Assembly (NCBI GenBank): GCA_965249595.1
Contig: OZ252242.1
Location: 1,168,569-1,232,568, forward strand
Source of the DNA: Chloroflexota bacterium
Lineage (GTDB): Bacteria > Chloroflexota > UBA11872 > VXNJ01
Direction: 5' to 3'
Length of the DNA stretch: 64,000 nucleotides
Shown: in pieces, positions 12,947-62,212 of the stretch
Numbering within the stretch: the stretch's first letter is position 1
Layout of the letters: each line of letters opens with the position of its first letter
Translations under genes and position numbers: made by a program
Notes under the pieces: model-generated
The model's input: only the letters and a program-made list of their open reading frames with translations
What the model was told of the DNA's origin: nothing
The model's database searches: none

Positions 12947-14136
12947 GCCCGGTGCGCATTCTGGCCGGTCGGCGAATCCTGCTCGGGGTCTCCGGCTCGA
13001 TCGCCGCTTACAAGGCCGCCCTGACCGCCAGCCAACTTACGCGCTCCGGGGCACTGGTCGACGCTGTGCTAACCGGTGCCGCGCAACGGTTTGTCGGAAC
13101 GGCCACGTTCGAGGGACTCACCGGGCGCCGGGCCTATGGTCATGTCGGTGCAATGACTGAATCCGGCGAAATAGCCCACGTCGCAGTGGGCCTGGCCGCC
13201 GACGGCGCGCTGATCGCTCCAGCCACCGCCGAAACCATCGCCCAATTGGTCAGTGGCCGGGCCGACAACATCCTCACCGCGGCGATGCTGTCGGTACGCG
13301 GGCCGGTTCTGATCGCACCGGCCATGGAATCGGCCATGCTCGCTTCGCCTCCGGTGCAAGCCAACCTCGAGACCCTGCGCGCGCGCGGCGCCATGATCGT
13401 CGAGGCGCCATCCGGTCGGCTTGCCTCCGGCCATTTCGGACCCGGCCGGTTGGCCGAGCCACAGTTCCAGATCGACCAACTGCGGGCGGCGCTGGGCGCC
13501 GAAGGTCCCTTAAAAGACCGGCGCGTCGTAGTGACCGCCGGCGGAACTCGCGAATACATTGACGCGGTGCGTTTCATTTCAAACCCCTCCTCCGGCGCCC
13601 AGGGAGTAGCGCTGGCCGAGGCGGCGCGCGATCGCGGCGCTTTGGTGACCCTAATTGCGGCAAATCTGACGGTTCGCCCGCCCGCGGCGATTCAAGTGCG
13701 CTATGCCGACGATGCGGCGGCAATGGCCGCTGCGGTGGCTGAAAAGGGCGCCGTCGATGCGTTGATCATGTGCGCGGCGGTTGGCGATTTCCAACCGGTC
13801 CACCGCCGAACCGACAAGCTTTCGCGGTCCGATGGCTTGATGCTCGAACTTGAGCCAACGCAAGATATCGTAGCCGGTGCCCGCGGCCCGGCAGTCAAGA
13901 TTGGCTTTGCGTTGAACAATCGTGATTTGGCAGCCGATGCGCAGGCCAAATTGGCGGTCAAGGGTTTGCAAGCCATCGTCGCCAATGACCCCAGCGCCGC
14001 CGGGGCCGGCTTTGGCCCAGGGACCAACGCCGTGAGCATCTACACCGAGAAAGGACTCTGGGACCAAATTGGTCCGGTTCCGAAATCGGAGGTGGCCGAA
14101 CGCATCATCGATCTGCTCGAGGATCTGTTGAGTTGA
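12943..14136 (+). CDS. coaBC: Bifunctional phosphopantothenoylcysteine decarboxylase / phosphopantothenate-cysteine ligase
   Basis: N-terminal flavoprotein ILLGVSGSIAAYKA, and the CoaB motif VVVTAGGTREYIDAVRFISNPSSGAQG. Confidence 0.9.
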   Translation: MSPVRILAGRRILLGVSGSIAAYKAALTASQLTRSGALVDAVLTGAAQRFVGTATFEGLTGRRAYGHVGAMTESGEIAHVAVGLAADGALIAPATAETIAQLVSGRADNILTAAMLSVRGPVLIAPAMESAMLASPPVQANLETLRARGAMIVEAPSGRLASGHFGPGRLAEPQFQIDQLRAALGAEGPLKDRRVVVTAGGTREYIDAVRFISNPSSGAQGVALAEAARDRGALVTLIAANLTVRPPAAIQVRYADDAAAMAAAVAEKGAVDALIMCAAVGDFQPVHRRTDKLSRSDGLMLELEPTQDIVAGARGPAVKIGFALNNRDLAADAQAKLAVKGLQAIVANDPSAAGAGFGPGTNAVSIYTEKGLWDQIGPVPKSEVAERIIDLLEDLLS

Positions 14137-36353: not shown

Positions 36354-37581
36354 CTACCCCGGCGTCATAGGGTAGAGGGGAACCCTGGCCAGATTGGCAA
36401 GGGCCCTGGCAAATTCCTCCTGCCAGGGATAGGCCGTAGGCAATGCGAGCCATATGCGGCGATGGGTTATCTTGATGCGGGCGGCGATCTTGAGATAGCG
36501 CAGGCGCAGGGTATCGCAGCGCCGACGGGCATTGGCGGTTCCTTGCAAACCCAGCCGTCGCAGGCTCTCCAGCAATACGTAGGCGAACCCTGAGAAATAC
36601 AGTCGTAGCTGATTGGAGCGCATGGCCCCGGTGGAGGTGCGGTCGGCGAACAGTCCCAGCTGCATCTCCTTGATACGGTTCTCCATCTCGCCCCGGGCGC
36701 AGTAGAGCTTCTCGTATAGATCCTGTTTGCCGATACGGGATGGGGACAGGTTGGTTACCACGAATCTGGGATTGGGACCCTTGCGCAGATGCTCGGCCTT
36801 ACCCACCACCCGGCGCCGCTTCGACCATGACTTTAAGGTCCGGTAGTGGAACTGGCGAAAGCGCCGTGACCGGGAGCCGGTGGCGATGGAGCGCCGCCGC
36901 GATTTATGGAGCGCCTTTCCCAGCTTCTGCTGTAGGCGAGGGTTGCGGGACAGACCGAAGACGTAGCCGATGCCCTCCTTCTCACACCAGGTCATGGTCG
37001 CATCGCGGGCAAAGCCTTAAATCGGCGCGCAGGATGATCTCCGTATCCGGCCAGGCCGATCTGATCCGGGCGATGAGCGGGGAGAGTTCTTCCGCCATCC
37101 CCGCTCCGGGATCGCGGCTGGCGCCTTTTAGACGGCAGAGCAGCAGGTGCTCTCCGCAGAAGACGTACAGCGGCAGGTAGCAGTATGAGCGGTAATAGCC
37201 ATGGAAGAATCTGCCTTCCTGCTTACCGTGCAGTGGATCGTCGGTTGCGTCAAGGTCGAGGACGATCCGCCGCGGCGGACGCTGCTGGGCCTCGATGAAC
37301 AGATCGCACAGCAGGGCGTCCATCTTCGCAAAGTCGGCCGCGATCTTCCGGTAGCGGTCTAAAGGAGCCGTATCCGGGCGTGAGAGTTCCAGGCGGTTTA
37401 GGGCCGATGCCGATGCCAGCGGCCTGCCCCTGTCGCGCTTGCGGCGGCGTCTCTCTCCGGTCAAATCATCCTTACCCGCCAATAGCGCCAGCATTGGATC
37501 GGCGCGCAGGACATCGTGATCGTTTAACGGGGATCCACCGAAATTGTCGACAAGTTGCCATTTCCGGTCCTGACGAATCAA
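36354..37581 (-). mobile_element. DDE transposase gene of the IS4 superfamily, split by a frameshift into two ORFs (IS copy A, probable pseudogene)
   Basis: The N-terminal fragment 36982..37581(-) contains LDLDATDDPLHGKQEGRFFHGYYRSYCYLPLYVF (first catalytic Asp block). The C-terminal fragment 36354..36995(-) contains YCARGEMENRIKEMQLGL (the E/K block of IS4-type DDE enzymes). The frames differ and overlap by 14 nt. Confidence 0.7.
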
Positions 37582-37601
37582 TCATCTGCCACCATCACCG
37601 G

Positions 37602-39073
37602 TTAATGCGCTGCCACCGCCGCTGCAATCGCCCAACAGCGCTGCAAATGCCGGCCAGTTGGCCAGTCAAGGCCCCTATCTGCGGCCGCTGGGATGCTTAA
37701 CGCCCACAGGTAGGGGTGATTACATCCGCAGTCCCTGTGGACCGCGGGGGTCAGATAGGCTGCGGCAGCCCCCGCAGCCGGGAAAGCGCGATCTTGATCT
37801 GATCTGCCCAGGGCCAGCGCAACGGCCGATGCAGGGTGTGGCGACGCGCCGACCTGCTCAATCGTCCCGGCAGGGCGAATATCCTCCGCCGCAGGGTGGG
37901 AGTGGTAACGACTGAGCCGTCGCCAGAGCCGATTACGGCGATCCAGCGGCCGAGCTTGTGGGCGGTCGCCGGTATCGCCAGCCACAGCGGCGTTGGCGGT
38001 AAAGCTCCCCGCTGGCATGTGGTTGCGGCCGACGCCGTACTTTAGGTCCTTGATCGCGTTCTCGATTTCGGCATGACGGCGATGATCGTCCTCCAGGGAG
38101 ATCATCTCTCCCTTGCGGTCGGTGATGAAGGCGTGGTAAGAGTAATTGGCCAGCAGGGCCAGCGGCGACCCCGGTGTGGGTTTTACCCGTCTTACGATCA
38201 GACGCAGCGGTTCTGAATTCTCCGAAGGGGGCATAGGCTATCTCGGCTGCGTCGGCGGCGCCATCGAGCCAGTACTCTAGCGGAGTCCAGTCCTCCTCGG
38301 CTATCTCTTCGATCTTCTGACGCAGGCTAGAGTGCTGGCGGACAGTTATCGAGAAGCGTACGTTGTGCTCTCGGCCGGTGGCAACGATCCGCTTTGAGTA
38401 GAAACCGGAGTCGGCGCGCATCGTCAGCTGCCCCTTAGCGCCGGCATAGCGCACCCGGCTTACGGTCTCGGTGAGAAAGTGCGCCGCGCCGCGGCCGGTG
38501 TTGGCCCGGCCCCTGCGCCGACGGGCAAAGAGCACCTGGCCGGTTCCGGCGGCAACCGCCAGTAAGGGATGGTAGCCACGCACTCCGCATATAGCAGTGA
38601 TCACGGGCGCCATCTTTTTTGCGACCGTAAGTCTGGCCGACGGTCGAGTCAAGATCAATGGTGAAGGGATCCCTGCCGGGACCGGCGCCGGCATCCCCGG
38701 CCCGCCGCCGCCGCTGGCGGCTGATCCCATCCAGCTGGCGTACGTGTCCCCATCTGAAACTGCGCAGGAATGCCCCCAGAGTAGAAGGGGCCTTGACCTT
38801 AAAGCCCAGCACCTTCTCGGTATCGCCCGAGCGCAGGACATCGGCATCGTCGATGCAGTCTCCGCCGCCAAGGGCCGAGGCCACCAGCGTCTGCAGCTTG
38901 TCGGAGGCATTGGCGGCGCCGGGAGTTGAGCCCAGGGTAAGGCGGGAGTCGCTAAGTTCCCCAAGTCCCAGGCGCTTAGCCAGGGTCATCGGCAGGAGCA
39001 GTCCGGCATTGGCCACCAGGTTCTTCTCGTCGAAGGCGATCTGGACGCGGTCGGGGTTAATAGTTGGTAGCAT
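37602..39073 (-). mobile_element. IS1380-like DDE transposase gene broken into three ORFs (IS copy B, probable pseudogene)
   Basis: Fragments: 38435..39073(-) has FDEKNLVANAGLLLPMTLAKRLGL...IDLDSTVGQTYGRKKDGA; 37933..38964(-) has ...GAKGQLTMRADSGFYSKRIVATGREHNVRFSITVR...; 37602..38234(-) has ...YSYHAFITDRKGEMISLEDDHRRHAEIENAIKDLKYGVGRNHMPAGSFTANAAV, the IS1380-type C-terminus. An AT-rich terminal sequence at 39074-39190 abuts the uppP stop. Confidence 0.7.
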
Positions 39074-42673: not shown

Positions 42674-43851
42674 TTATTTGCGCATGCCGGCGAGCCGGAA
42701 CCACTTGTATTTGTAGTTGAGGATCAACAGCGCGAGCACAAAGGCCACGATGTCTAAGAAAACGTTTGGGAAAAGTGCAATTTCCTCTATGTTGATCACG
42801 TACAGCGAAGGTGTAGATATTGCGGCAGCTTCAGTGTTAGCGAACAAGCCGATGAATAGATTGTTCACTGCGTGGTAGCCGGCCGCAACTTCGATTCCGC
42901 CGTCGAGCAGCACGCGACCACGGCGAAGAAGAGCCCTGAGGACACCAGCGCGACGGCGTAGGGCGCAATGCCGTATTCCCAAGGTTCTGGATTGGACAGG
43001 TGCGGAAGCATGAAAATCACCGCGGCGGCGATCGCCACCACCACGCGGTTGCGCGCGAGCAGCGACAGCCCCTGCAGGATGTAGCCACGGAAGAACACTT
43101 CCTCGTAGCCGGCCTGGATTGGGGCGAGGACGATCGCCACCAGGGCGAAGACCAGGTATTCCAAATCCGGTGCCTGGTAGGTGAAATCGAGTTGCAGTAC
43201 GAATCGGTTGACCAGCTGCACTATGACGGCGATTATCAGGGCGACGAGCGCACCACAAAAATACCGGTGCAGGTCAATGGATTTCCTGCCGGTAACTACC
43301 TGTCGCAGTGTTTGCCGATGGAGCAGCTTGGCCACTCCCCAAACGGCGATCAGGCCAAAGGCGAAACCGGTGACGGCTATTGCCAAACTGGCCGATAGCG
43401 TGCCGTCTCCGGCCAATCCCTCGCCCGACGCGCACGTCAAATCAAGGATGTTTGTCGCATCGATGGCGGCGCAGCCGGCAATGGATGCGACGAGCCCCGA
43501 TCCGAGCCAAACGACGATGATGGCCAGAATCCCCACGACCCAACGCCACCAATCGTTGCGACCCAACGAGGCGTTGAGGATGAATTGCTCGCGTGCCGCC
43601 GGCGAGCCGTTCGCGGCGAGCGCATCTACCGGTTGTTGCATGCTCGTGGAGCCCTCCCCTGCCTTTCCATCGATTGCCGATGGCCTCTGAAAGCGGAGGA
43701 GCCTTCCCGTGTCTGTAGCGGCTGGGTTACAAAAGATCCACCCGAATCCCCGCTCGATCCATTGTTGCCGGGCGGTCAGCTGGCTGGCGATGACGGAACT
43801 GGCGGTTCGCCTCGGTTGGCAAAGCACACGATCCGTGGGACTCGGCCGCAC
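42674..43851 (-). pseudogene. CPBP-family (CAAX/Abi) intramembrane metalloprotease, frameshifted
   Basis: The ORF 42865..43851(-) carries motif 1 GYEEVFFRGYILQG and motif 2 AAVIFMLPHL. Motif 3 (GYHAVNNLF) lies in a different frame, in ORF 42674..43258(-). The frames switch within gccgtggtcgcgtgctgctcgacgg near 42900-42930. The likely true start is M71 (MQQPVDALAANGS) near 43641. Confidence 0.6.
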
Positions 43852-44977: not shown

Positions 44978-45130
44978 GCGATTTACCTATTACGACTGGC
45001 GGCGAACGATCGCCACGACCTGCCGCACCTGCAAATACCGCCGCCAAGGAATTTGGGCTTGCGCCCTAACATCTAATTGTCGGCATGGGGAGGCGTCGGC
45101 ACGGGATCTTGCTGTATTTGATCGGTGTGA

Positions 45131-46306
45131 ATGTCTCTCCTTAGTGGCAAGAATGGGTCGCCCCAATCGGCGCGGATAGTAGTTACCGCGGATGTCGCCC
45201 TTGGTCGTTCAAATCATTGGCTGCCGCGGGGACAACAGCTGGGCGCGCTGCTGGAGCGCCGCTTAGCATTCGGGGTTGTGGTAAATCACGTGCTTTCGAG
45301 CCATGCTCAAGCACTGGTTATCGCCGGCGGTTTGTTTGATGACACCAGTCCGGAGCCGGCCGAGATTGCCGCCGCCGTCGCCGGACTAGGTTCACTGGCC
45401 GAGGCCGGCGTCGCCTGCTTCGCAATTCACGGTGCTGCCGAGACCACTCCCGGCGATGTCGTCTCACCGCTTGACCTGTTGGCCAAGCTTGATCTGCTCG
45501 TCTGTCTTGACCGTCAACGTGAGAGCCATATCGCTCGCCTAGGCGGTTTACGTGTCGCGTTTACAGCTCTGCTGGGCGCCGATGCCCGGGGCAGGGACAA
45601 TCCGCTGCGTCAACTCTCATTCCCGCGCATGGGTGATTGTCACGTCCTGGTGACCGATAGCCAGGTGGAGCAACTGACACCCGCCGGTGCGCCAGGGCCG
45701 GTAATAGACCTTGAATCTGTAAATGCCCTAACCGGCGTAAGCCTTCTAATTGCCAATGGGCCGCGGCCCCAGCGCTACCAAGCGACTCGGGCGATGGTTG
45801 TCGTGCCGGGATCGCCGTTGCGGCCTTCTCCAGACGGGGGGTTCGTCGACATTTCGGTTGCCAGCGGGGGCGTGCAGGACATCAAGTTTGAATCCGGCGC
45901 CGGTTTGCCGGCGGCCGAGGTGTTGGTGCCGGCCAGCCTGCTTGAATTACCCGATGCGAATCGCCAAATTCGTAAAAAGATTGCCGAGTCGGCCACCGAG
46001 GCCACCGAGGTGGTTATGAGGGTTTACGGGCGCGCCTCGCCCGAATCCCTGCGCCGGGCGCGACTTGCCAGCTTGGTCCGCTATGGGCGGTCGGTAACGG
46101 CGCGCTTCGTCCTGGATGTATCGGGATTGCTCTCTGTTCAAAACGACGCCGGCCGCGGTCCGCTGGCGGTTCTCGACGAGATTGGCGATCAGGTTGCCGA
46201 ACGGGACCGATCGTCATGGAAAAGCGACCACGAACGCGCCAATGCCATTGACGAATACAAATCGCTGATTGCCGGTCGAAATGGCTTGGGGATTGGCCTT
46301 CGATGA
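45131..46306 (+). CDS. SbcD/Mre11-like calcineurin-fold protein with degenerate metal-binding motifs (predicted inactive nuclease homologue)
   Basis: It aligns by eye to the SbcD N-terminus as ARIVVTADVALG vs MRILHTSDWHLG, ALVIAGGLFDDTSP vs AIIVAGDVFDTGSP, and CFAIHGAAET vs VVLAGNHDS. The motif I His, motif II first Asp and motif III Asn-His are all substituted. The stop overlaps the next gene's start (ATGA). Confidence 0.55.
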   Translation: MSLLSGKNGSPQSARIVVTADVALGRSNHWLPRGQQLGALLERRLAFGVVVNHVLSSHAQALVIAGGLFDDTSPEPAEIAAAVAGLGSLAEAGVACFAIHGAAETTPGDVVSPLDLLAKLDLLVCLDRQRESHIARLGGLRVAFTALLGADARGRDNPLRQLSFPRMGDCHVLVTDSQVEQLTPAGAPGPVIDLESVNALTGVSLLIANGPRPQRYQATRAMVVVPGSPLRPSPDGGFVDISVASGGVQDIKFESGAGLPAAEVLVPASLLELPDANRQIRKKIAESATEATEVVMRVYGRASPESLRRARLASLVRYGRSVTARFVLDVSGLLSVQNDAGRGPLAVLDEIGDQVAERDRSSWKSDHERANAIDEYKSLIAGRNGLGIGLR

Positions 46307-48753
46307 TCACCATCACGCGACTGGCTATTCGAAACGTCCGGGCCATATCGACCCTGGACCTGAACCTGCCGCCCCGCGGCAATTTCTTAATCGACGCTCC
46401 CGCCGAAGGCAAGACCAGTGTGGCGTTGGCAATGCGACTAGCACTGCAAGGACCGACCCGGGGTCAGGAATTGGATGACCTGATTCGCCACGGTTCGCAA
46501 TCGGCCGAGGTAGAGCTTGAGCTTCGCGACGGGCCAAAAACACTTCGGATCGCCCGCCAAATCGGCAGAGGTCGACATGCTGCGCAGGCGAGATTGACCG
46601 CCGGCCTCACCGAAGGAAAGGCCGATCGGCCGGAAGCCGTAAATGCTTTGGCTTCGGAGTTCTTTGCCTATCCGCTGGGACAGGTGGCCGACTTTTTTGT
46701 TTGGAGTTCCGTGAGCGCGTCGCGGAGTTGGCCCTTGGCGGCCGATCGTTCCTACCTGATGCGGGCCGCCGGCGGGAACAATGATGGTACGGCTGCGGCA
46801 CGGGCGCTCGGACATGCCCGCTCGAAGGTCGCCCAAATCCACGAATCCAAACGGCACCGTGAGCTGATCGCCAAACGACTTCGGTTGCGCCGTCAATTGG
46901 CCGGCGAAGAGTTGGTGGAATTGGCGCCGGCGTTAGCCGGGGCGCGGACCGAATTTGAAACGGCTGAAGCTGAATTGAAACAGCTGGATTGCGAACTGGC
47001 CAAAAAGCGCCAGCAGGCGATGCTTACCGGTCGCGCCGCCGAAACCTTTAAGGTCACGACCGAGATCATTGATCAGGCTGAAGCGCTCGATCAATTGCGA
47101 GCCAAGCTACGAATCCTTAACAACTTGGCTACCAACGTCGATGGCGGAGAAGCCGAATTCATTCGCCTGCGGGCGAAGGCCGGCCGGGTGGCAACCGCCC
47201 ACGCCGCGTTGGTTGAGGCCGAGCAACTCAACGCCCAGGCGGCCGATGCCAATATTCAACGCGGGCGCGTCGGAGAGGTTCTTTCAGAGCTGGTTGAGCT
47301 GCGCACCGGAAGCCTCCAGGAGGTAAGTGAAGAGCGGTATCGACGTTGGATCGATTTGACCGAACAGGTCTCGTCAGCCGCGTTAGCCGGCGTAAGCGCC
47401 CGGTTTGACCTGGGCAGTCCGGATGCCGTTGACCCGGTGCGGATGAAGGCCCAACTTCGCCAACTAGAGCTTGAAATGACCGAGGGCGGCCTAGAAATTC
47501 CGGTCTCAATTGACCAGGCCCGCCAGTTTTTGACCGAAAACGAGCCGGACCAGATTTTGCGCTTGGAATCTGAATTGGAATCGCCCGCAATTCCGTCGGA
47601 TGAATCATTCGAAAGGGAATTCCGATCCCGGGCGACGACGGCCCATGAGCGGGCTGCGACCATGCTTTTCGGACTCGATTTGCCGCCCGATCGACGGCTG
47701 GTGGAGTCGCGACTTTCCCAAATCGATCAAGAAATCGAGGAGTTGGAGCGGCTGGCCGCAGATCCTCAATTGCTCGTCGAACAGATTCGCGCTCATGAAC
47801 TCGAAATTGTCCGCCGCCGCAAATTGCTCGATCAGGGGCGGGAGGAGTTGGCGCAACGAGAGCCAGACGCCGGGTTTGAACACTTCGAATTAGATCTAGA
47901 TTCCGTAATTTCTCTGCGCGATCAGTCAACCGCCGACGTTTCTTTACATCCCGCTCCTGCCGACCCGGTGCTCAACCGGATGATGCAACGCTGTCAACAA
48001 CGTTGCAAACGCGCCGCCAGCACCGTGGACGAACATGAATCCCGCATCAAGGCTGCAGCACGGCAGTTGGATCTCGACCCGGTTTCGGCATTGGCCAAAG
48101 CGGCCCAGCAGCGCGCGCGGCCCGACCGCCGCCGCCAACTGCAAATGGAGCTAAAACGCCTGGAAACCAAGATTGCCAGCCTGGCCGCATCGGTCGCTAA
48201 ACCCTCTGGCAACGGCCGACATCCGGTGGATGAGGACGATGTCGAACTGGCCGAAAGAAATTTGGAACGCCTGCAGCGACGGGTCGAACGCCGCCGTCAA
48301 TTGGATCCGGCAATTCGCGGTTTGGACAAAGGGCTTGGTCTTAGAGCCGCCGAGCGGACCATCCAAAACGCCCGTAACCTTTTACCGCGCGTAAGCGACG
48401 GGCGTTATTTCGACTTGCAAGTTGAACCCAACGGGACAATTCGGCTGTGGGACGAAGATGCCGAGGATTGGATCGGGGCTGGCCAATTCGGCAGCTCCCT
48501 GCGCGACTTGTCCGAGTTGGTAATCTGGCTCTCCCGCGCCGTCACGCACAGCGGTACGTCAATTTCCGGGATGCCGGGATTCTGCCTTCTAGATGATCCC
48601 GGCGCCCTCATCGCCGAACCGCTTCAGCATGTCCTTGCGGATGCGTTAGACAGCGATCCAATGCTCAATGCGATCCCGCAAATGTTGATGTTGAGCGGTC
48701 GCCGGTCATTTACCGCCGCTGGTTTCGAACCGTTGTGCGTGTTGGGCAATTGA
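46303..48753 (+). CDS. SbcC/Rad50-like SMC-type coiled-coil protein with degenerate ABC-ATPase motifs
   Basis: N-terminal ITRLAIRNVRAISTLDLNLPPRGNFLIDAPAEGKTSVALAMRLAL (Rad50 N-lobe with Walker A reduced to AEGKTS). A coiled coil of about 500 aa. C-terminal QFGSSLRDLSELVIWLSRAV (signature-like, SGGE becomes SSLRD), GFCLLDDPG (Walker B with Glu replaced by Asp), and no H-loop His. Confidence 0.55.
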   Translation: MITITRLAIRNVRAISTLDLNLPPRGNFLIDAPAEGKTSVALAMRLALQGPTRGQELDDLIRHGSQSAEVELELRDGPKTLRIARQIGRGRHAAQARLTAGLTEGKADRPEAVNALASEFFAYPLGQVADFFVWSSVSASRSWPLAADRSYLMRAAGGNNDGTAAARALGHARSKVAQIHESKRHRELIAKRLRLRRQLAGEELVELAPALAGARTEFETAEAELKQLDCELAKKRQQAMLTGRAAETFKVTTEIIDQAEALDQLRAKLRILNNLATNVDGGEAEFIRLRAKAGRVATAHAALVEAEQLNAQAADANIQRGRVGEVLSELVELRTGSLQEVSEERYRRWIDLTEQVSSAALAGVSARFDLGSPDAVDPVRMKAQLRQLELEMTEGGLEIPVSIDQARQFLTENEPDQILRLESELESPAIPSDESFEREFRSRATTAHERAATMLFGLDLPPDRRLVESRLSQIDQEIEELERLAADPQLLVEQIRAHELEIVRRRKLLDQGREELAQREPDAGFEHFELDLDSVISLRDQSTADVSLHPAPADPVLNRMMQRCQQRCKRAASTVDEHESRIKAAARQLDLDPVSALAKAAQQRARPDRRRQLQMELKRLETKIASLAASVAKPSGNGRHPVDEDDVELAERNLERLQRRVERRRQLDPAIRGLDKGLGLRAAERTIQNARNLLPRVSDGRYFDLQVEPNGTIRLWDEDAEDWIGAGQFGSSLRDLSELVIWLSRAVTHSGTSISGMPGFCLLDDPGALIAEPLQHVLADALDSDPMLNAIPQMLMLSGRRSFTAAGFEPLCVLGN

Positions 48754-48765
48754 TCGCGACCAAAG

Positions 48766-49224
48766 TTGGCGCATAGGACGTATTTGGAGGCGCTGGCCCG
48801 CCAGCCGCAGCGCATTCCAGGATCGAGGCTGCCGGCTCCCCGGGCGGCGGTCCTGATACGGATAACTGCCGCCTTCGCTGGTGCGGGCGCCTTAACTTGT
48901 CTGCTGGCCGCCGTTTCGCTGATGTTGCTAGCGGATCCCGGCAAACCGACCAATCAAATTTTTTTCTACTGCTTGGTCCTGGCTGGCGCCGCCCAAATGG
49001 GCTGGGCTGCTGCCTATCGCATTCAGCGCGAGCGATTGAGCGCAGGAGCGGGCGCGGACGTGGGCCGCATTTGCTTTAAATGGACGGCGATTGCGGCCGC
49101 AATCGCTGCCGCCTGGTTGGCGGGTCTGCGCTTGGGCGCACCAGTCCCGGTGTTATCGCTGGCCACCGCGATTGCGGTGCCGGTTTTGGCAATTTCGGCC
49201 AGATGGCTGCAGGGTCGACTCTGA
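48766..49224 (+). CDS. Hypothetical 4-TM membrane protein immediately downstream of the SbcC-like gene
   Basis: 152-aa ORF starting 13 bp after the SbcC-like stop, with four hydrophobic helices. No known motifs. Confidence 0.4.
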   Translation: MAHRTYLEALARQPQRIPGSRLPAPRAAVLIRITAAFAGAGALTCLLAAVSLMLLADPGKPTNQIFFYCLVLAGAAQMGWAAAYRIQRERLSAGAGADVGRICFKWTAIAAAIAAAWLAGLRLGAPVPVLSLATAIAVPVLAISARWLQGRL

Positions 49225-49319
49225 GTTAAACCGCGATTGCGGCAGCCGGCGAGCAGCCGGGGTTTTTGGCGAAAATGGCAAGTTGCCGCTGACCCCAAGC
49301 CAAAGGCGTACCCCTACCT

Positions 49320-51441: not shown

Positions 51442-51518
51442 GGGCCACTAGCTCAGTCGGTTAGAGCGCGCCTCTGATAAGGGCGAGGTCATTGGTTCGA
51501 TTCCAATGTGGCCCACCA
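51442..51518 (+). tRNA. tRNA-Ile (anticodon GAU), CCA encoded
   Basis: gggccac-ua-gcucagucgguuagagc-g-cgccu-cuGAUaa-gggcg-aggucauugguucgauuccaau-guggccc-acca is a canonical cloverleaf. Confidence 0.9.
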
Positions 51519-52243
51519 GCGAGAACTAAATTGCGAACGCGCACGCCCAAGGCCACCTCGGCGTTATCGGTGATCGCGATAGGTGGCTGACCTCCGACGC
51601 GGGTACCGTGTAGCGAATGACGGTCCGACCGGGCTCGACCAGCACCTAGACGGCGAAATAGCGGACAAAGGCCCGGGTCTCGGAGATCTTGCTAGTCCTT
51701 TGGAACTCGCTCATGTCCGGGCGAAGCTAGCAATGGTGTAGGTGCCGTCCCGCAGCACGCGGCGCTCCGCCATCGCCTCTTCGGCAGCGAATTCCAGTTA
51801 CGGGCGCCGATCGCGCTGGTTCTTGATGCGGTCGCAGGTTTCGGCTTGCGCGAGGATGACGCTCCCGGCGAATAGCGAGATTCGTTCCAGTTTCCGATTG
51901 AACTCAGCCAGCACCCATTACTACCTACTCGAATGGCCCCAGCTTCTAGTTAATGGCTAGTTAGACGGCGCAAGAGCAAATTTCGTCTTATCCTCCCAGC
52001 CGCCCAACCACTTCCATCAATTCGTTTAACAAGATACCGCGCATTATCAATGCTTGGCCACGCTGGGTTGCCTTGCGTACAGGAACTCAGTTGCGTGCGG
52101 ACTTCGTAACCTCGCGGGGGATTCAGCTTGCACTGCATTGACAACACGCTGGGGCATTCTGATTTCCGCAGCGTGTTCCGCGCCGGTTATTTCGCGAGGC
52201 GATGATCGATGCGCTTCGGGCGGGGAGATCCAGTTACTTGCTG

Positions 52244-52900
52244 CTAGCCCGCCTGCATGACACCGACGGGGCAACTGATGCCAGTGCCGCCGACGCCACA
52301 GTAGCCGTTGGGGTTTTTCGCAAGGTACTGCTGGTGGTAATGTTCAGCGTAGTAGAAGTCGGGCGCGCCGAGGATTTCGGTTGTGATCGGACCGTAATGG
52401 GCCGCGGACAGCACCTGCTGATAGTGGGCTCGGCTCAGTTCGGCGGCCTCGCGCTGCATCTCGCCGTAAACATAGATGCCGGAGCGGTACTGCGTCCCGA
52501 TGTCGTTACCCTGACGCATGCCCTGCGTCGGGTCGTGGCCCTCCCAAAATGCGCGGAGTAGCGCCTCGTAGCTGATCCGCGAGTGGTCGAATACTACGAG
52601 CACAACCTCATTGTGTCCGGTGCGGCCGCTACAGACCTCGTCGTAGGTTGGATTTGGCGTTACCCCTGACGCGTAACCGACGGCGGTGGTATAGACGTCC
52701 GGGAGTTGCCAGAAGATTCGCTCTGCGCCCCAGAAGCAGCCCATCCCGAAGAGCGCCCTCTCCAAGCCGTCGCGGAAGGGCTCACCGAGCGGCCTGCCGT
52801 TGACGTAGTGCTGCGGCGGAATGTACACGCCCTCGGAGCGGCCAGACGGGGCGTCCTTCGCGGTCGGGAGTTCGAGCTTCTTGGTAGAGAACCAAGACAT
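52244..52900 (-). CDS. msrA: Peptide methionine sulfoxide reductase MsrA
   Basis: GMGCFWGAE catalytic-Cys motif, and the C-terminal ...[12 protein letters not shown]. Confidence 0.85.
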
Positions 52901-53449
52901 TGTTGTGCCTCTCGATGCGTGCGTACGTGCGGTGCGGTTCGCGGCCGGAAGTTATCCGAATGCGGGACCCGCTGCTCCGTCGGACGATGATACGCATTCT
53001 GCGGATGGCTAAATATTTCAGGTGTTTCCGCCGGACAGTGCGACTCGGGCATGACGGTTCGGCCAAAGGTAAGGACCATAAAAATCGACGTTTGTGTGGT
53101 ACGCATTGGCCGAGAAGGCGCAAGGTTTGGTACCCTGCTGCAGGTGGCGATTACGCCCAGTGGGCTCCCCAATGCGCAAGACATGCAGCGCCCACGCGCG
53201 ATCCAAAACGTTCTGTATGGCCTTTTGGCCGAGGGCCAACCTGTCCGCCGGATAGGCTAAGTTCATCGGCGGCTAACCAGAACCGGACTGTTAAGCCAGC
53301 TGGGCTCATTTGTTGGCTAGTAACGCAGGAGTAACCGATGTCGGTGCGGGGTGAGGAATTTGGGTCGGGAGTTGACGAGTCGTCTTCGCTCAGATTGCCA
53401 TGTTTCTTAAGAAGTTCAAAAAATTTCACGGGCGAGCGGTAACGGCAGG

Positions 53450-54535
53450 ATGAATCTAGGGCTGTTCATAATGCCGGTCCACCCGCCGGAAAAGCCGCGG
53501 GCGGTTGGATTCGCCGAAGATTTGGAGCTCATCTGTCGAGCCGACGCCTTGGGATTCAGCGAAGCCTGGGTGGGCGAGCACATGACCTCGCTGTGGGAGA
53601 CGATATCGGCGCCCGATCTATTCCTGGCCAACGCCTTCCCGCAAACTCGCGACATCCGCCTTGGAACTGGTGTCTATTTGCCAGCCTTGCACCACCCGGC
53701 TGATCTTGCAACGCGCGCCGCAATGCTGGACCATCTCTCCGGCGGCCGATTCAATTTGGGATTGGGGACCGGATCCATTCCGTCCGATCGCCCTTTTCTC
53801 GGCCTTGCCGGCGATAGGCAGTCGACCCAGGAACGATTCGACGAAGGCCTCGAAGTGATCTTGGCGCTGTTTGAGGTAGATCCGCCTTGGCGTTACGAAG
53901 GTAAGCACTGGCAGGTTTATTTGGGCGAGGACAAACAGCAGCGCGATTTACAAATGGGCTATCCGCTGCGGCCGTTCACCAAACCACATCCACCGATCGG
54001 GATTCCGGGTTATACGCCAAATTCCGGGTCATTGGTCATGGCCGGTCAACGCGGTTACTGGCCCCTGTCAACCAATCTGGCCGCCAACTGGATTATTGGA
54101 ACCCACTGGGATGCCTATCGCCGCGGATTAGCCGATGCCGGCCGACCGGCCGACCCCGAACCGTGGCGAGTGGCCCGCGAAGTTTTTGTGGCCGACAGTG
54201 ACGCGGAAGCGCTCGAATATGCGATCAACGGCCCGATGGGCCAAGCTTTTGAGCGTTTTATGCTCCCGATATTGGCGATCAACGCGCCCGGTGGGGTAGG
54301 AACGTTCAAGGATGACCCTGAAATGGCTGACTCCGACGTAACTCTTGAATACCTAGCCCACAAGGTATGGCTGGTGGGCAGCCCGGCAACCGTAGCCGAC
54401 AAGATAAACGACCTTCGTGGGAAGCATGGCCGGTTTGGCACCCTGCTGGTCATGGGCCACGATTGGGCCGATCATGATCGGGCGATCCACAGCCTCGAAT
54501 TGCTCGCGCGCGAAGTGCAGCCAGCGGTATTGTGA
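53450..54535 (+). CDS. LLM-class (luciferase-like) flavin/F420-dependent oxidoreductase
   Basis: TIM-barrel LLM pattern: GFSEAWVGEH, LGTGVYLP, FNLGLGTG. The start is likely internal to the ORF-track extent. Confidence 0.8.
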   Translation: MNLGLFIMPVHPPEKPRAVGFAEDLELICRADALGFSEAWVGEHMTSLWETISAPDLFLANAFPQTRDIRLGTGVYLPALHHPADLATRAAMLDHLSGGRFNLGLGTGSIPSDRPFLGLAGDRQSTQERFDEGLEVILALFEVDPPWRYEGKHWQVYLGEDKQQRDLQMGYPLRPFTKPHPPIGIPGYTPNSGSLVMAGQRGYWPLSTNLAANWIIGTHWDAYRRGLADAGRPADPEPWRVAREVFVADSDAEALEYAINGPMGQAFERFMLPILAINAPGGVGTFKDDPEMADSDVTLEYLAHKVWLVGSPATVADKINDLRGKHGRFGTLLVMGHDWADHDRAIHSLELLAREVQPAVL

Positions 54536-54608
54536 CCGCGAACGGATACAAATTTTGCCTCCCCGCCGGGTCCGGATTGGGAACGGCGGGACGGATCGGG
54601 CGATCCGA

Positions 54609-55628
54609 ATGACGAACGGCGGCAGATTAATCGGCAATCTATTGGATTCGGCCGCCGGCTGCCTGCGTTGGGCTGAAGATCTGTTGGCCGGTGATGGGAG
54701 TTTCGTCGGGGCCGAAGATTCGCTGGGCCCGTATTATCTGGGCGGCCTGGCCTACACGTCGCTCGGTCGACCGGATGTTAGCGCTCGAATAATCACTTAT
54801 GCGCGGGATCGATTTCTCGTCAATGGCGATATCAATGATGTGGCCGGACAATTCGACTCGCCAGTCGCTAACTTCCGCAATTCATTCTTTTGCCTGAGTG
54901 CGCAGCGATCGGGATTCTATGGCGTGGCCGGCGCGATCGCCGACCGATTGCAACGTGGTGCCCACCCTGCAACCGGTGGCATTCCAGACAACGACGACGG
55001 TGCGCGGGTGATTGAGATGGGAACGACTGCGGCGGCGATTGTGGCCTTGCTGGCGGCTGGGCGCCAGGATGCGGCGACGAAGGCCGGAGATTTCCTGGCC
55101 GACTCGCTGGTGGCCGGGCAACCCGATCTGGATGGCCGCGTTCTATTGCGAAAAAACTGGGATGGTGAGTGGATCGACAAATTTCCCGCCGCCGATTCAG
55201 CCCGCTATCAAATCTTGCTGGGCGTACCGGGACAGATTTACTGGTTCTTTGGCATTTCGATGGCCGCCTTGGGGCAGCTGTACTCTGTAACCGGCAAGAA
55301 GTCCCACCTGGAAGCCGCCACGACGGTTTTCGAGTGGGCCAAACAATGCCAGCCGGGGTCCTTCGCCGACCTGACTGCGGCCAAGGTTGGATGGGGAGCC
55401 TCGGTGCTCTATGCGGTCACCGGTGGCGAGCGTTTTGCAAAAGCCGCCAGCCAAGTCGGCGCGATGCTGGTGGAAACTCGCGATCCCGGTGGCTACTGGC
55501 TGCGCCGTCCAATGGTGGTCCGATTGGAAGACCAGGATGTCGCAACTACGCTCGATACGAGCCTTGAACGTGTTTGCTGGCTGTCGGAAATTGCGCGCAA
55601 TCTGGCTGCCGGCGCGGCGGCCAATTAA
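54609..55628 (+). CDS. Hypothetical protein, possibly an (alpha/alpha)6-barrel (AGE/glycosidase-like) protein
   Basis: The ATG at 54609 (MTNGGRLIGNLL...) lies just after the LLM stop. The upstream part of ORF 54417.. overlaps the LLM gene in another frame. The body is a repetitive helical pattern rich in aromatic and Gly residues. No catalytic motif is recognised. Confidence 0.45.
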   Translation: MTNGGRLIGNLLDSAAGCLRWAEDLLAGDGSFVGAEDSLGPYYLGGLAYTSLGRPDVSARIITYARDRFLVNGDINDVAGQFDSPVANFRNSFFCLSAQRSGFYGVAGAIADRLQRGAHPATGGIPDNDDGARVIEMGTTAAAIVALLAAGRQDAATKAGDFLADSLVAGQPDLDGRVLLRKNWDGEWIDKFPAADSARYQILLGVPGQIYWFFGISMAALGQLYSVTGKKSHLEAATTVFEWAKQCQPGSFADLTAAKVGWGASVLYAVTGGERFAKAASQVGAMLVETRDPGGYWLRRPMVVRLEDQDVATTLDTSLERVCWLSEIARNLAAGAAAN

Positions 55629-55631
55629 TCG

Positions 55632-56774
55632 ATGGGCACGCGAGTTGGAATCGGCATCATCGGCGTTGGCGCCGCCGGAATTCGGCACGCTCGGGCCTGT
55701 TTGCAAATCCCGATATGGTTCGCCGATTCAACGGTTGATCCGGTGCCAGTCGTCTGCGCCGACGCCTGCGGCCCACTGGCTGAGCGGGTGGCCGGCCAGC
55801 TCGGATTTGAACGTTGGACCGATGATTGGCGCAGCGTGATCAATGATCCGCGGGTGGATGCCGTCGCGATTGCAACACCCAATAGGACGCATGTCGAAAT
55901 CGTTTCGGCCGCCGCGGCCGCCGGCAAGGCGATCTTGTGCGAAAAACCGGTCGGCGCCGAGCCCGCCGAAACCGCCGCCGTTGCGCGCGTGATTCGCGAT
56001 ACGGGCGCCGTGTTTATGACCGGATATAACTATCGTTGCGTTCCGGTTTTGGATCACCTGCACAAGGTTATCCGGCGCGGTGACTTGGGTGAACTCACCC
56101 ACTACCGCGGCCGCTACTTCACCGGCGAACGAATAGGCAAACCGTTCCCGTACGCCTGGCGCCACCGCCAGGCCGAATCGGGATTTGGTGCCCTGTCCGA
56201 CTTAATGTCGCACACGATCGATATGGCCCATTTCCTATTTGGCCCGATCGCCGAAACAGTGGCCAACCGCGAGACCTTCGTGGGCGAGCGGCTATTGGAT
56301 GGAGAGGGCAGTGAAGACGGGGCGATGGGCGTAGTGGAGAACGAAGATTACGTCGGTGCGCTAGTGAGATTTGACAATGGCGCTCACGGCACCCTTGAGG
56401 TCTGCCGGGTGATCAAAGGGCCGACCAACGAGTTGTCGTTCGAGCTCAATGGCAGCGAGGGGTCGGCGAAGTGGTCATTGGAGCGCATGCACGAACTCTG
56501 GCTGTACCAACGCTCCGAACTCGGTGAAGGATACGGACAGGTTTATTCGCAGCCAAGTTATGGCCAGCACGGGGCTTTTAATCCTGGCGCGGGCATCGGA
56601 CCCGGATTGATGGACCTCAAGGTCATTGAATTTCACAATTTTTTGCAGGCGGCAACTGGCCACAAACAAACAACCCCGGGGATCGCCGAGGCCTTGGCTG
56701 TTGCCGGCGTGCAGGATGCGATAGCCCGATCCTGGCAGTCGAGTGCTTGGGAAAGAGTGCGCCCGTTGGCGTAG
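55632..56774 (+). CDS. Gfo/Idh/MocA-family NAD(P)-dependent oxidoreductase
   Basis: N-terminal Rossmann GIGIIGVGAAGIRHA, the EKP motif (LCEKPVG), and a C-terminal alpha/beta dimerisation domain. Confidence 0.85.
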   Translation: MGTRVGIGIIGVGAAGIRHARACLQIPIWFADSTVDPVPVVCADACGPLAERVAGQLGFERWTDDWRSVINDPRVDAVAIATPNRTHVEIVSAAAAAGKAILCEKPVGAEPAETAAVARVIRDTGAVFMTGYNYRCVPVLDHLHKVIRRGDLGELTHYRGRYFTGERIGKPFPYAWRHRQAESGFGALSDLMSHTIDMAHFLFGPIAETVANRETFVGERLLDGEGSEDGAMGVVENEDYVGALVRFDNGAHGTLEVCRVIKGPTNELSFELNGSEGSAKWSLERMHELWLYQRSELGEGYGQVYSQPSYGQHGAFNPGAGIGPGLMDLKVIEFHNFLQAATGHKQTTPGIAEALAVAGVQDAIARSWQSSAWERVRPLA

Positions 56775-56852
56775 CCGGCTCCCTTTGGCCGCCGAGGCGA
56801 AAATTACTCGGCCGCCCAATGGACCAACAGATTTGTGTATCGGGCCGGGCGC

Positions 56853-56925
56853 GGGGATGTAGCTCAGCTGGAAGAGCGCTGCCTTTGCAAGGCAGAGGTC
56901 AGGGGTTCGAGCCCCCTCATCTCCA
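56853..56925 (+). tRNA. tRNA-Ala (anticodon UGC)
   Basis: ggggaug-ua-gcucagcuggaagagc-g-cugcc-uuUGCaa-ggcag-aggucagggguucgagcccccu-caucucc-a. The G3:U70 identity pair is present. CCA is not encoded (followed by ccc). Confidence 0.9.
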
Positions 56926-56974
56926 CCCACCAACAGCTTTCTTCGATTGAACAGTCAATGAACGCCGGCGCCAG

Positions 56975-57355
56975 ATGAACGAGATTCGCATGGGCGTCGC
57001 CGTGGTCATATCACTCATGACAGTGTTCGCAGTTTCTTTTGCGGGCACAGCGCTCGGCGGCGGGCCGGAGATCGGTTTGGCGCAGGCAGCCTGGGTTGCC
57101 GGATTCAATCCGGTTGGGAGCTTGTTGCTGGCAACGGCCGCTTGGTCGGCAAAAATGGGCAGGCTAAATGGCCGTCTGTTGGATTTTGGGATTGGCATCG
57201 GCGCGGTGTCGGTGTTGATGGCGATTTGGTTTTCAAATCAGATCGCTAGTGGCCAGATGCCCGGGACGCCAGACGTGCCGATCTTGATTTCAGGGGCCTG
57301 CGTGATTGGGGTCATTTGGGGAATCTTCGAAAAGGTCAGCGCTATTCGCGCTTGA
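56975..57355 (+). CDS. Hypothetical small membrane protein
   Basis: 126 aa with four predicted TM helices. No motifs. Confidence 0.4.
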   Translation: MNEIRMGVAVVISLMTVFAVSFAGTALGGGPEIGLAQAAWVAGFNPVGSLLLATAAWSAKMGRLNGRLLDFGIGIGAVSVLMAIWFSNQIASGQMPGTPDVPILISGACVIGVIWGIFEKVSAIRA

Positions 57356-57719
57356 TCTGGCTTCCTACGTTAGAACCGATCCCTCTTTTAGAACTTGTAT
57401 CGCCGTGGGCGGTCACCTAGTTTGGCCGGCTTGCCAGCATCGCGATTGAGCATTGCCGAACACCGTTGGGCCCTCTCGCGCACCGCCAACCAAATCGAAT
57501 ACGGTTTTGCCCGTAACTGAGTCTCAAACGGGCCGTAGGTCCAACCTGGTAGCGGTTGGAATCCGTCCAGATCCTGGCGGGTTATTGGCGCCGCGCCGTC
57601 TGCGCTGCAAGATTGCGGCGCGGAATAATTGCCGGGTCCTGCCGCCGGGTCGGTAACGGCGCCCCCGGCGTTAGCAATTTAGCGATGTCATCAATGGTCA
57701 AAATGTCTCGTGCATAAAG

Positions 57720-58745
57720 ATGAGCAGCGAGAAGTCGTGGCCGATGACGAATTCAAGCCCAAAGATCAAGCTGATCATCGATACCGACTGTGGTGTTGAT
57801 GATGCGGTGGCTCTTTGGTATGCGTTGACCTGCCCGATCTTCGAAGTCGAACTAATCACCTGCGTCCACGGCAACGTCGGCCATGACTTAGTGGCGCGAA
57901 ATGTCGCCCGGGTCCTGGGGGCGGCCGGACGCACCGACATCCCAGTTGCGTTGGGCGCCTCGGATGCCTTGGCGGGCTCGCCGGTTGTCGGAAGGGCCGC
58001 TTCCGTCCACGGAAACGACGGCCTGGGTGACGCCGATTTGATGGACTACACGATTGAATTCGATGACTTGTCGGCCGACCAGGCGATAGTTGATCGAGCC
58101 CGCCGCATGCCAGGGCAATTGACGTTAGCGGCGCTAGGTCCGGCGACCAACGTGGCGCGGGCGCTGCGTCTTGAGCCGGAGCTACCGAACTTGCTTGGCG
58201 AATTGATCGCCATGGGCGGAACTTTCAATCTCCCCGGCAATATTTCACCGGTCGCCAGCTTCAACACTGCCGGAGACCCCTTGGCGGCCAAAGAAATGGT
58301 GAACGCGGCCTGGCCGCAACCACCGCGGCTGCTCACTTATGACGTGATGCGAGTGACAACTTTGTCCAGCGTGGAACTGGAGACGTTGAAAGCAAGTCAA
58401 TCACCATCGGCGCGATTTTTAGCCCGCCCTATGGCCTACTATCACTTCGCTACCGCGGGCGCTAACGCGGGTGGAAGGATGGTCTGCCCGGACTTATTAA
58501 CGCTTGTCTGGCTGACCGATCCCGACGCTGTCAATTCGAATGTTTATTCGATGGACGTCGATGTGGGGCGTGACGCGGCGTGGGGGATGACGGTTGTAGA
58601 CCGGCGCGAACCGTCCTTAATAGCGGTGACGGAACAGAGTCGCCACGTCGACCCCGCCGTAACCCCGACCGCCCGCTGGGAGATTTCCGAGTCGGCCGAC
58701 GAAGCCCCGTTTAGAGCCGCATTTCGCCATTTGCTCGGCACCTAG
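57720..58745 (+). CDS. Inosine-uridine-preferring nucleoside hydrolase family protein
   Basis: IKLIIDTDCGVDDAVAL (DxDxxxDD Ca-binding motif). The start may be M9 at 57744. Confidence 0.85.
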   Translation: MSSEKSWPMTNSSPKIKLIIDTDCGVDDAVALWYALTCPIFEVELITCVHGNVGHDLVARNVARVLGAAGRTDIPVALGASDALAGSPVVGRAASVHGNDGLGDADLMDYTIEFDDLSADQAIVDRARRMPGQLTLAALGPATNVARALRLEPELPNLLGELIAMGGTFNLPGNISPVASFNTAGDPLAAKEMVNAAWPQPPRLLTYDVMRVTTLSSVELETLKASQSPSARFLARPMAYYHFATAGANAGGRMVCPDLLTLVWLTDPDAVNSNVYSMDVDVGRDAAWGMTVVDRREPSLIAVTEQSRHVDPAVTPTARWEISESADEAPFRAAFRHLLGT

Positions 58746-58939
58746 GTGGTGGTTGCTTCAACCGTCCGGATTTTGGCGTGGATATTGGCGTCTGGGTCGA
58801 TTACAATCAACGGCTAACTTCGACACGAATTTGCCGTGGTGCGCAATTTGTGCACCTGCGTCGCTTCGCGTAGGAGGCACCTTCGACAAGTCAATATGTG
58901 CAAAACTTCAGTTTTGCCGACCCGAGGAATCTAAAACGA

Positions 58940-62024
<3,085 letters not shown>

Positions 62025-62091
62025 CCGAGTCTTCGGGACGGCAATACTGGAGTTTTTGCACAAATATTTACTTGCGATTAATTTGCAAGAA

Positions 62092-62212
62092 TCCCCCGGT
62101 GACCAAGCGGAGGGGCCCCACCCGTTCTCATTCCGAACACGGAAGTTAAGCCCTCCAGCGCCGACAATACTTAACGGGCAACTGTTCGGGAAGATAGGTC
62201 GTCGCCGGGGGT
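62092..62212 (+). rRNA. rrf: 5S ribosomal RNA
   Basis: Helix I is cccccggugac...gucgccggggg, and the internal loop C/E blocks are ccacccguucucauuccgaacacggaaguuaagc. A T-run (ttctttt) follows. Confidence 0.85.

Follow-up and report, generated by a model that had tools for sequence, protein, structure and literature searches.

To our knowledge, Mre11-Rad50 is universally treated as an ATP-driven nuclease, and a locus that keeps the two partner genes side by side, with the catalytic motifs of both proteins degraded, raises the question of what such a pair is and what it may be maintained for. The locus considered here lies in a stretch of 64,000 nucleotides (nt) from a Chloroflexota bacterium (assembly GCA_965249595.1, contig OZ252242.1, positions 1,168,569 to 1,232,568), referred to below as the window, and comprises three consecutive genes on the plus strand, designated A, B and C. 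A first-pass annotation of the window, made by eye, had read A and B as an SbcD/SbcC-like pair in the sbcD-sbcC order with an ATGA overlap, followed by a small membrane protein. That gene order and overlap are confirmed, as are all three open reading frames (ORFs), with the following extents:

45131..46306, plus strand: gene A, Mre11/SbcD-fold protein of 391 amino acids (aa), taken from the ORF list, with none of its phosphoesterase motifs intact
46303..48753, plus strand: gene B, Rad50/SbcC-type ATP-binding cassette (ABC) protein of 816 aa, with a split head, a coiled coil of ~500 aa and degenerate ATPase motifs
48766..49224, plus strand: gene C, small membrane protein of 152 aa, with ~4 transmembrane (TM) helices and a TTG start

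On the evidence set out below, A and B very probably constitute a catalytically dead but functional pair. For the A-B-C operon as a whole the favored reading is a non-catalytic, membrane-associated scaffold or tether complex derived from Mre11-Rad50, to which we would give, on grounds of sequence, a probability of roughly 0.55.

The stop codon of A and the start codon of B overlap as ATGA on direct reading of the sequence, placing the gene for the Mre11-type protein directly 5' of that for its Rad50/SbcC partner; a spacer of 12 nt separates B from C. The TTG start of C lines up with the start codons of its orthologues (ATG, GTG or TTG), and gene calls on other contigs of the same species place the start 18 nt downstream of the window's TTG. 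At two related loci, L002 (~13655-13700) and L004 (~13650-13695), the B-C spacer is ~55 nt long and holds a GC-rich inverted repeat of the form CCCCG...CGGGG, which the spacer in the window does not have.

With respect to A, no family was assigned by Pfam, NCBIfam, PADLOC or PHROGs, and its matches to the archaeal Mre11 models of NCBIfam are weak (residues 15-130, E 1.8e-8, far under the cut-offs). A profile built from A and nine orthologues finds Pyrococcus furiosus Mre11 in the PDB (E 1.6e-5), and alignment by hhalign of the profile of the A clade with that of 17 canonical relatives, i.e. relatives with all five phosphoesterase motifs, gives a probability of 100% (E 4e-41, 359 columns). As judged from these profiles, A keeps the Mre11 fold, that is, a calcineurin-like phosphoesterase fold with an Mre11-type capping domain. 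Two helices are predicted at its C terminus (residues 343-357 and 366-384), which may correspond to the helix-loop-helix by which Mre11 contacts the Rad50 coiled coil at its base. The remnants of the phosphoesterase motifs are located as follows:

45185..45205, plus strand: A residues 19-25, TADVALG, remnant of motif I (DxH); Asp kept, His replaced by Ala
45320..45343, plus strand: A residues 64-71, IAGGLFDD, remnant of motif II (GDxxD); metal-bridging Asp replaced by Gly
45419..45445, plus strand: A residues 97-105, FAIHGAAET, remnant of motif III (GNHD); Asn and His both lost
45641..45778, plus strand: A residues 171-216, region of motifs IV and V; motif IV reads HVLVTDSQVEQ and motif V reads LLIANGPRPQRY, versus GHxH

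In the alignments, motif I of A (ADV-A-LG) falls on ADxHLG of the canonical relatives, the His position being occupied by Arg in most orthologues; the motif I Asp is the sole metal ligand remaining in the window protein and is itself not invariant across the clade. Motif II (GGLF) falls on GDLF, with GG invariant in the clade, motif III (AIHGAAE or AIHAPDE in the clade) falls on AIGGNHD, and motif V reads ANGP or AGGS instead of GHxH. The His of motif IV is absent from the window protein but present in five of the nine orthologues. Thus motifs II, III and V are gone throughout the clade, and all five motifs are broken in the window. Because a single ligand is left, A is predicted to be unable to bind the two-metal center and should not cut DNA. 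The loss of nuclease ligands had been proposed by eye for motifs I-III; the profile alignments agree and extend it to motifs IV and V.

The case of B is similar, in that Pfam, NCBIfam, PADLOC and PHROGs return weak matches to its P-loop lobe only, the N terminus matching both Rad50 and RecF models of NCBIfam. A profile of B matches Methanocaldococcus jannaschii Rad50 at both ends, and both head halves are linked to those of canonical relatives by BLASTP and by hhalign (probability 99.6%, E 7e-24, over the C-terminal 203 columns). In an AlphaFold2 model helices span residues 162-697, and the best Foldseek match of this model is Rad50 of the Chaetomium thermophilum MRN complex, followed by Smc5/6, MukB and JetC, with the fold matches resting mostly on the coiled coil and the N lobe. 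B keeps the Rad50 architecture, its head being divided into N- and C-terminal halves with a long antiparallel coiled coil between them, and the recognition of Mre11- and Rad50-like proteins in the first-pass annotation, which had been at the level of sequence blocks, is borne out by profile-to-PDB searches and hhalign and, for B, by Foldseek. The relevant regions of B are these:

46396..46419, plus strand: B residues 32-39, APAEGKTS, Walker A remnant; first Gly lost, loop one residue short
47368..47502, plus strand: B residues 356-400, stub of the coiled-coil apex, which aligns with a hydrophobic hairpin of relatives and is itself non-hydrophobic
48484..48498, plus strand: B residues 728-732, QFGSS, signature remnant; canonical relatives have [FL]SGG
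48577..48606, plus strand: B residues 759-768, GFCLLDDPGA, Walker B and D-loop; catalytic Glu replaced by Asp, D-loop without Asp
48691..48702, plus strand: B residues 797-800, LSGR, H-loop position; His absent

Motifs were placed by the profile against M. jannaschii Rad50, by hhalign and by MAFFT alignment of the two head halves. In the P-loop (A-P-A-E-GKTS), GKTS is invariant in the clade and the first Gly is replaced; the loop of the window protein and of orthologue P0012 is one residue shorter than that of the canonical relatives and of the other three of the four orthologues. At the Q-loop, Gln has been replaced (FFVWSS versus CFVEQK), the signature is [FC]GS[SGA] rather than [FL]SGG, Walker B reads LLDDP versus FLDEP, with its Asp (D764) invariant, the D-loop Asp is lost, and the H-loop reads LSGR versus ISH. 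P0012, with LDEP, is the sole orthologue that has the catalytic Glu. Because the Q-loop Gln, signature Ser, catalytic Glu, D-loop Asp and H-loop His are gone and the P-loop is altered, ATP-driven engagement of the heads and hydrolysis should be lost in B. The profiles agree with the motif losses read by eye and add those of the Q-loop Gln and the D-loop Asp. A CxxC zinc hook, which it had been proposed to look for, is found neither in B nor in any relative examined, canonical ones included. The suggestion of a matched pair of pseudoenzymes derived from Mre11 and Rad50 thus holds in the profile alignments.

Loss of the recognizable motifs does not of itself mean loss of chemistry, and the alternative that survives best, albeit as an unlikely one, is that A and B still work by weak or non-canonical chemistry, with B as a slow, RecF-like ATP switch and A as a regulated DNA-binding or adaptor subunit, or with a rebuilt active site. 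The invariance of GKTS and D764, the LDEP of P0012 and the RecF matches of the B N terminus would fit such a machine, as would the retention of conserved polar residues near the old site of A (H100, E104, D169 and H171). So would the distribution of conservation in B, where the heads and coiled-coil bases have 60-61% pairwise identity versus 44% in the C-terminal arm. Against it stand the missing Q-loop Gln, signature Ser, D-loop Asp and H-loop His and the shortened P-loop of the window B, together with the five broken metal motifs of A, of which one non-invariant ligand is left.

The location had been called accessory-like, in view of insertion sequence (IS) copies ~6 kb away, and this is not supported, given the conservation of the surrounding genes. 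The order uppP-hppA-hisC on the minus strand followed by A-B-C-aminotransferase on the plus strand is found at four Chloroflexota loci from metagenome-assembled genomes (MAGs), the sequence of a fifth, L005, ending inside B; in total, the synteny is seen in L001-L004, L006, L013 and L014, with L005 and L018 ending before C. As hppA is 86-87% identical across related loci, the synteny is that of a core, vertically inherited region. The transposase fragments in the window (36354-39073, minus strand, DDE ORFs) lie beyond uppP, and the same spot in other strains of the species holds an IS21-type element, DDE_Tnp_1_4 fragments or no IS (L010 829-3041; L011 1219-3321), so insertions at this spot upstream of uppP vary from strain to strain and fall just beyond the edge of the conserved block.

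These observations bear on the proposal that the operon is an accessory sensor or defense module of the SMC/ABC kind (Lamassu-, Septu- or Gabija-like), with B as the sensor of foreign DNA and C as an effector in the membrane. Defense systems commonly employ a small membrane protein as their effector, the B N terminus weakly matches PtuA, GajA and LmuB models, and IS copies are close by. However, the PADLOC matches are limited to the generic P-loop lobe (best E 3.5e-6) and leave A and C unmatched, the cassette is inherited vertically at one core locus in genomes that have diverged to ~30% identity in A, the IS content is strain-variable and outside the conserved block, and a scan of viral contigs found no relative. 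The full-length match, effector and island context that mark SMC/ABC anti-phage systems (Lamassu, Septu, Gabija, Wadjet) are not found here. A defense-island module was rejected on the grounds of core synteny and of matches confined to the P-loop lobe, and a defense role in general appears improbable.

That the genes are maintained is indicated by conservation at several levels. Searching 5.8 billion proteins with a word index yielded only 10 close homologues of A (52-58% identity) and five of B (43-46%), and full-length orthologues occur in at least five other Chloroflexota species. The motif substitutions are common to all orthologues of A and B and are therefore not due to chance or sequencing error; this is the outcome of a check that the first-pass annotation had advised as a means of telling selection from decay. 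Ratios of non-synonymous to synonymous substitution (dN/dS; Nei-Gojobori method, less saturated pairs) are 0.13-0.14 for A and 0.16-0.21 for B, to be compared with 0.10-0.15 for hisC, ~0.05 for the aminotransferase and 0.02-0.05 for hppA, and point to purifying selection. Long invariant blocks are present in A across 10 sequences and in B across five, and the most conserved region of A is the capping domain (76% pairwise identity). A and B are thus homologues of enzymes in which the catalytic residues are gone and purifying selection persists, which is the definition of pseudoenzymes.

The opposite view, that the genes are functionless relics, i.e. slowly decaying, pseudogene-like ORFs, could draw on the progressive loss of motifs along the lineage, on the faster evolution of B compared with its neighbors (44-46% identity versus 86-87% for hppA) and on the differences in B and C within the species, which are all non-synonymous. 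It is hard to reconcile with ORFs that are intact in every species examined, with dN/dS values of 0.13-0.21, comparable to those of hisC, with the many invariant columns, and with the conserved gene order and stop/start overlap. The only frameshift seen, in B of L004, is a one-base deletion in a run of C; an intact copy exists as P0013, and the frameshift is a homopolymer assembly error. A decaying pseudogene was rejected as a candidate on the intact ORFs, the dN/dS near that of hisC and the invariant columns, and such decay is very unlikely. Finally, although the first alignment was made by eye and single-sequence matches are weak, the profile-to-PDB, hhalign and MAFFT alignments concur and the canonical relatives show their motifs in the expected columns, so that ordinary SbcCD proteins behind a shifted alignment are ruled out and an alignment artefact has a negligible probability.

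How a maintained but apparently inactive pair arose can be followed in its relatives. At E <= 0.001, exhaustive profile searching turned up 196 relatives of A; among 112 aligned members, all five motifs are present in 75, three or four in 13, and two or fewer in 24, with motif loss in several unrelated branches (e.g. P0064, P0082, P0089, P0101, P0111). The canonical relatives of A (~390-440 aa, five motifs) come from Ktedonobacter, Caldiserica, Nitrospirota and other MAGs. The gene order is nurA-herA-mre11-rad50 in Ktedonobacter and herA-(deacetylase)-mre11-rad50, with nurA nearby, in Caldiserica; the Rad50 partners have every ATPase motif, and these proteins score best against the archaeal Mre11 and Rad50 models of NCBIfam. 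No match to HerA or NurA was found in the 64-kb window, nor within ~10 kb at eight loci of its lineage.

Between the canonical relatives and the window clade are intermediates (P0016-P0021, P0196, P0210-P0220), which have GDxD for GNHD in motif III of A and a variable subset of the other motifs. Three of these, on long contigs, occupy the same uppP-hppA-hisC/A-B-C locus as the window and are thus orthologues of its cassette; on a short contig from a fourth intermediate branch, hisC is divergent from A-B. The more distant syntenic orthologues retain four of the five motifs in A. The B proteins of the intermediates have kept the canonical Walker A, signature Ser and D-loop and have lost the Q-loop Gln, the catalytic Glu (DD) and the H-loop His, while the window clade represents a fully degenerate grade. 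The first losses were thus those of the Q-loop, catalytic Glu and H-loop of B, with a weakened signature, together with motif III of A, and the later ones those of the remaining nuclease ligands of A and of the signature Ser, D-loop Asp and apex membrane hairpin of B. The window cassette marks the last stage reached as an archaeal-type, membrane-anchored Mre11-Rad50 pair degenerated step by step; hence the suggestion of an undescribed system gives way to that of a derivative of a known pair, reached via traceable intermediates. The recurrence of catalytic-motif loss in the family suggests a function independent of catalysis, and fits a parent complex whose scaffold role persists without catalysis.

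Full degeneration was also observed in another group of Mre11-like proteins, separate from the window clade (P0039, P0059, P0060, P0074, P0090, P0107; motifs TAGNxIG, AGGLF and ALDD). Its loci are L017 1412-4827 and L016 33-1154, two short contigs being all that a metagenome scan for the group returned. The downstream Rad50-like ORF of L017 has no GK[ST] (ILGTPDELAAV in its place) and has a central hydrophobic hairpin.

The proposed link to the membrane has two components, one of which concerns the apex of the B coiled coil. The canonical and intermediate B proteins have, in the center of the coiled coil, a hydrophobic hairpin of ~30-60 residues with a two-helix pattern (e.g. L007 520-567, L008 382-429, L013 407-463), with Kyte-Doolittle means of up to 2.7. 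In the window clade this segment is absent, B being 65-110 residues shorter than in the orthologous intermediates, and a stub with a conserved Pro is left at ~360-385. Motif-complete Rad50-type proteins with the hairpin and without CxxC are encoded in Ktedonobacter (L007 8323-12042) and Caldiserica (L008 8161-10821) and at L015 (8581-12363); L007 and L008 adjoin herA/nurA, L015 does not. Such hairpin-bearing canonical proteins point to a membrane-inserted Rad50 family.

The other component is C, which has about four hydrophobic helices and a conserved basic N-terminal tail:

48766..48840, plus strand: C residues 1-25, basic N-terminal tail, T-x-L-x-ALARQPxRxxGxR

C matches no family in Pfam, NCBIfam, PADLOC or PHROGs, and PDB searches with it were likewise empty. 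It lies directly 3' of B in all eight of the genomes checked that have downstream sequence, down to ~30% identity in A, and does so in the intermediates and the window clade alike, which supports the idea that the small TM protein belongs to the same unit. Its tail is better conserved than its TM part (67% versus 39% pairwise identity).

Taking these features together, it may be proposed that A and B assemble as an A2B2 rod in the manner of Mre11-Rad50, with A as an Mre11-like dimer whose C-terminal helices would contact the B coiled coil at its conserved, positively charged bases. This proposal is consistent with the two predicted helices of A and with the charge of the bases (net +6 and +7, the rest of B being acidic). 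With the hairpin of B lost, C could be what anchors the complex to the cytoplasmic membrane, its conserved basic tail acting as a docking peptide, and the complex would act passively, as a tether or scaffold whose most plausible ligand is DNA, bound but left unprocessed. GKTS and the Asp of Walker B, both invariant, might serve to hold a structural nucleotide or phosphate ligand, or represent a residual switch. DNA tethering as the specific role of A-B-C is a tentative proposal, with odds clearly short of even. Slightly more speculative still is the possibility of a bacterial structural machine of a new kind, i.e. a membrane-docked, enzyme-dead rod, attached via the C tail, that anchors or organizes the chromosome or another large cargo.

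Several points weigh against the scaffold reading. The invariant GKTS and Walker B Asp, and the LDEP of P0012, leave some room for nucleotide-dependent switching, and RecF-type ABC proteins do function with weak ATPase sites. C could be merely syntenic with A and B. The head of the B model is poor, with predicted local distance difference test (pLDDT) values below 50 at residues 17-38 and 747-816, the alignments being shallow (10 sequences for A, five for B) and model quality correspondingly lowered, above all in the B head. Comparison of the window (46303-49224) with L010-L012 of the same species gives one to three non-synonymous changes in B, one in C and none in A, with no synonymous change in B; these are too few to interpret, could include long-read errors and lend no further support to constraint.

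Other features of the region are less directly related to these questions. The two candidate regulatory sites that flank the operon are:

44978..45130, no strand assigned: intergenic region separating the divergent genes hisC and A, with a promoter presumed from position only
49246..49270, plus strand: terminator-like GC hairpin with a T run, 22 nt 3' of the C stop codon, weak

A promoter scan found no sigma-70-type consensus in the hisC/A intergenic region, and terminator-like hairpin sites in the region are not more numerous than in shuffled sequence, making the hairpin weak evidence for a terminator of C. Between hppA and hisC this species encodes a membrane protease (42865-43851, minus strand), which is Rce1-like (CPBP-type) as judged by Pfam on L010-L012; protein comparison finds no counterpart at five related loci, and the gene may be a lineage-specific insertion into the block. 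Further downstream, the rRNA region of the window (51442-62210) is interrupted by protein-coding genes: tRNA-Ile(GAT) (51442-51518) is followed by msrA, a luciferase-like monooxygenase, an ORF and a GFO/IDH/MocA oxidoreductase, and tRNA-Ala(TGC) (56853-56927) by a small membrane ORF and a nucleoside-hydrolase-like ORF (57720-58745), ahead of the 23S (58940-62021) and 5S (62095-62210) genes. The 16S gene is absent from the window, and the 23S match, at 3082 nt against a model of 2925 nt, may contain insertions.

If the structural-machine proposal is correct, a housekeeping cytoskeletal or tethering role would have evolved from a DNA-end processing complex, and the parents would form a family of membrane-inserted Rad50 proteins in which the scaffold function can persist after catalysis is lost, explaining the repeated loss of motifs. 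Joint, stepwise catalytic loss under selection would be a natural separation-of-function experiment, setting the scaffold role of the complex apart from its enzymology. Among the papers searched, none was found on a dead Mre11-Rad50 pair, nor one joining Mre11, Rad50 and pseudoenzyme. The membrane hairpin at the zinc-hook position in the HerA-NurA-linked bacterial Rad50 proteins is itself a little-noticed feature, and links DNA-end processing to the membrane; such a link has been hinted at for Bacillus subtilis SbcE at the competence pole. In annotation, A, B and C are currently without a Pfam or NCBIfam name, and nuclease or ATPase labels would be unwarranted.

Among known systems, the archaeal-type Mre11-Rad50 pairs encoded beside herA/nurA in Ktedonobacter sp. 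and Caldiserica MAGs have the same gene order as the window pair and a domain architecture that in A is alike over the full length. The window pair differs from them in being without nuclease ligands and most ATPase motifs, in not being linked to herA/nurA, and in occupying a different, fixed locus with a 4-TM partner. By architecture, the nearest characterized analogue appears to be SbcE/SbcF (YhaN/YhaO) of B. subtilis, compared here by description, a second SbcCD-like pair in which the Walker A, Walker B and signature motifs are deviant but recognizable (PMC2811018). CxxC is missing from SbcE, whose unique central domain is hydrophobic and insoluble in its first half and carries a conserved proline (PMC2811018), and, by that published description, its central hydrophobic region resembles the hairpin of the canonical and intermediate relatives of B. 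Three of the five relatives tested (L006, L008 and L015, at 25.9-31.4 bits) pass the 22-bit cut-off of the YhaN-type Pfam family AAA_27, to which the window B has no match, and the window-clade B, unlike SbcE, has lost the hydrophobic center and most ATPase motifs.

Escherichia coli SbcCD is a nuclease of hairpins and blocked DNA ends with a full set of catalytic motifs and a zinc hook; the window pair retains none of these features. The inactive phosphoesterase B-subunits of eukaryotic and archaeal replicative DNA polymerases belong to another branch of the superfamily and have no Rad50 partner, and the Mre11 matches of A score far above those to that type. RecF, arcadin-4 and the archaea-specific SMC-related proteins illustrate that proteins of the Rad50/SMC type can be weak ATPases or structural, and RecF and arcadin-4 models do match the N-terminal lobe of B (E 1e-5 to 1e-7), over the first ~90 residues only; B differs from all of these in its Mre11-type partner and clear Rad50-type orthology. 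The window pair descends from Mre11-Rad50 but fails the defining catalytic features of both families.

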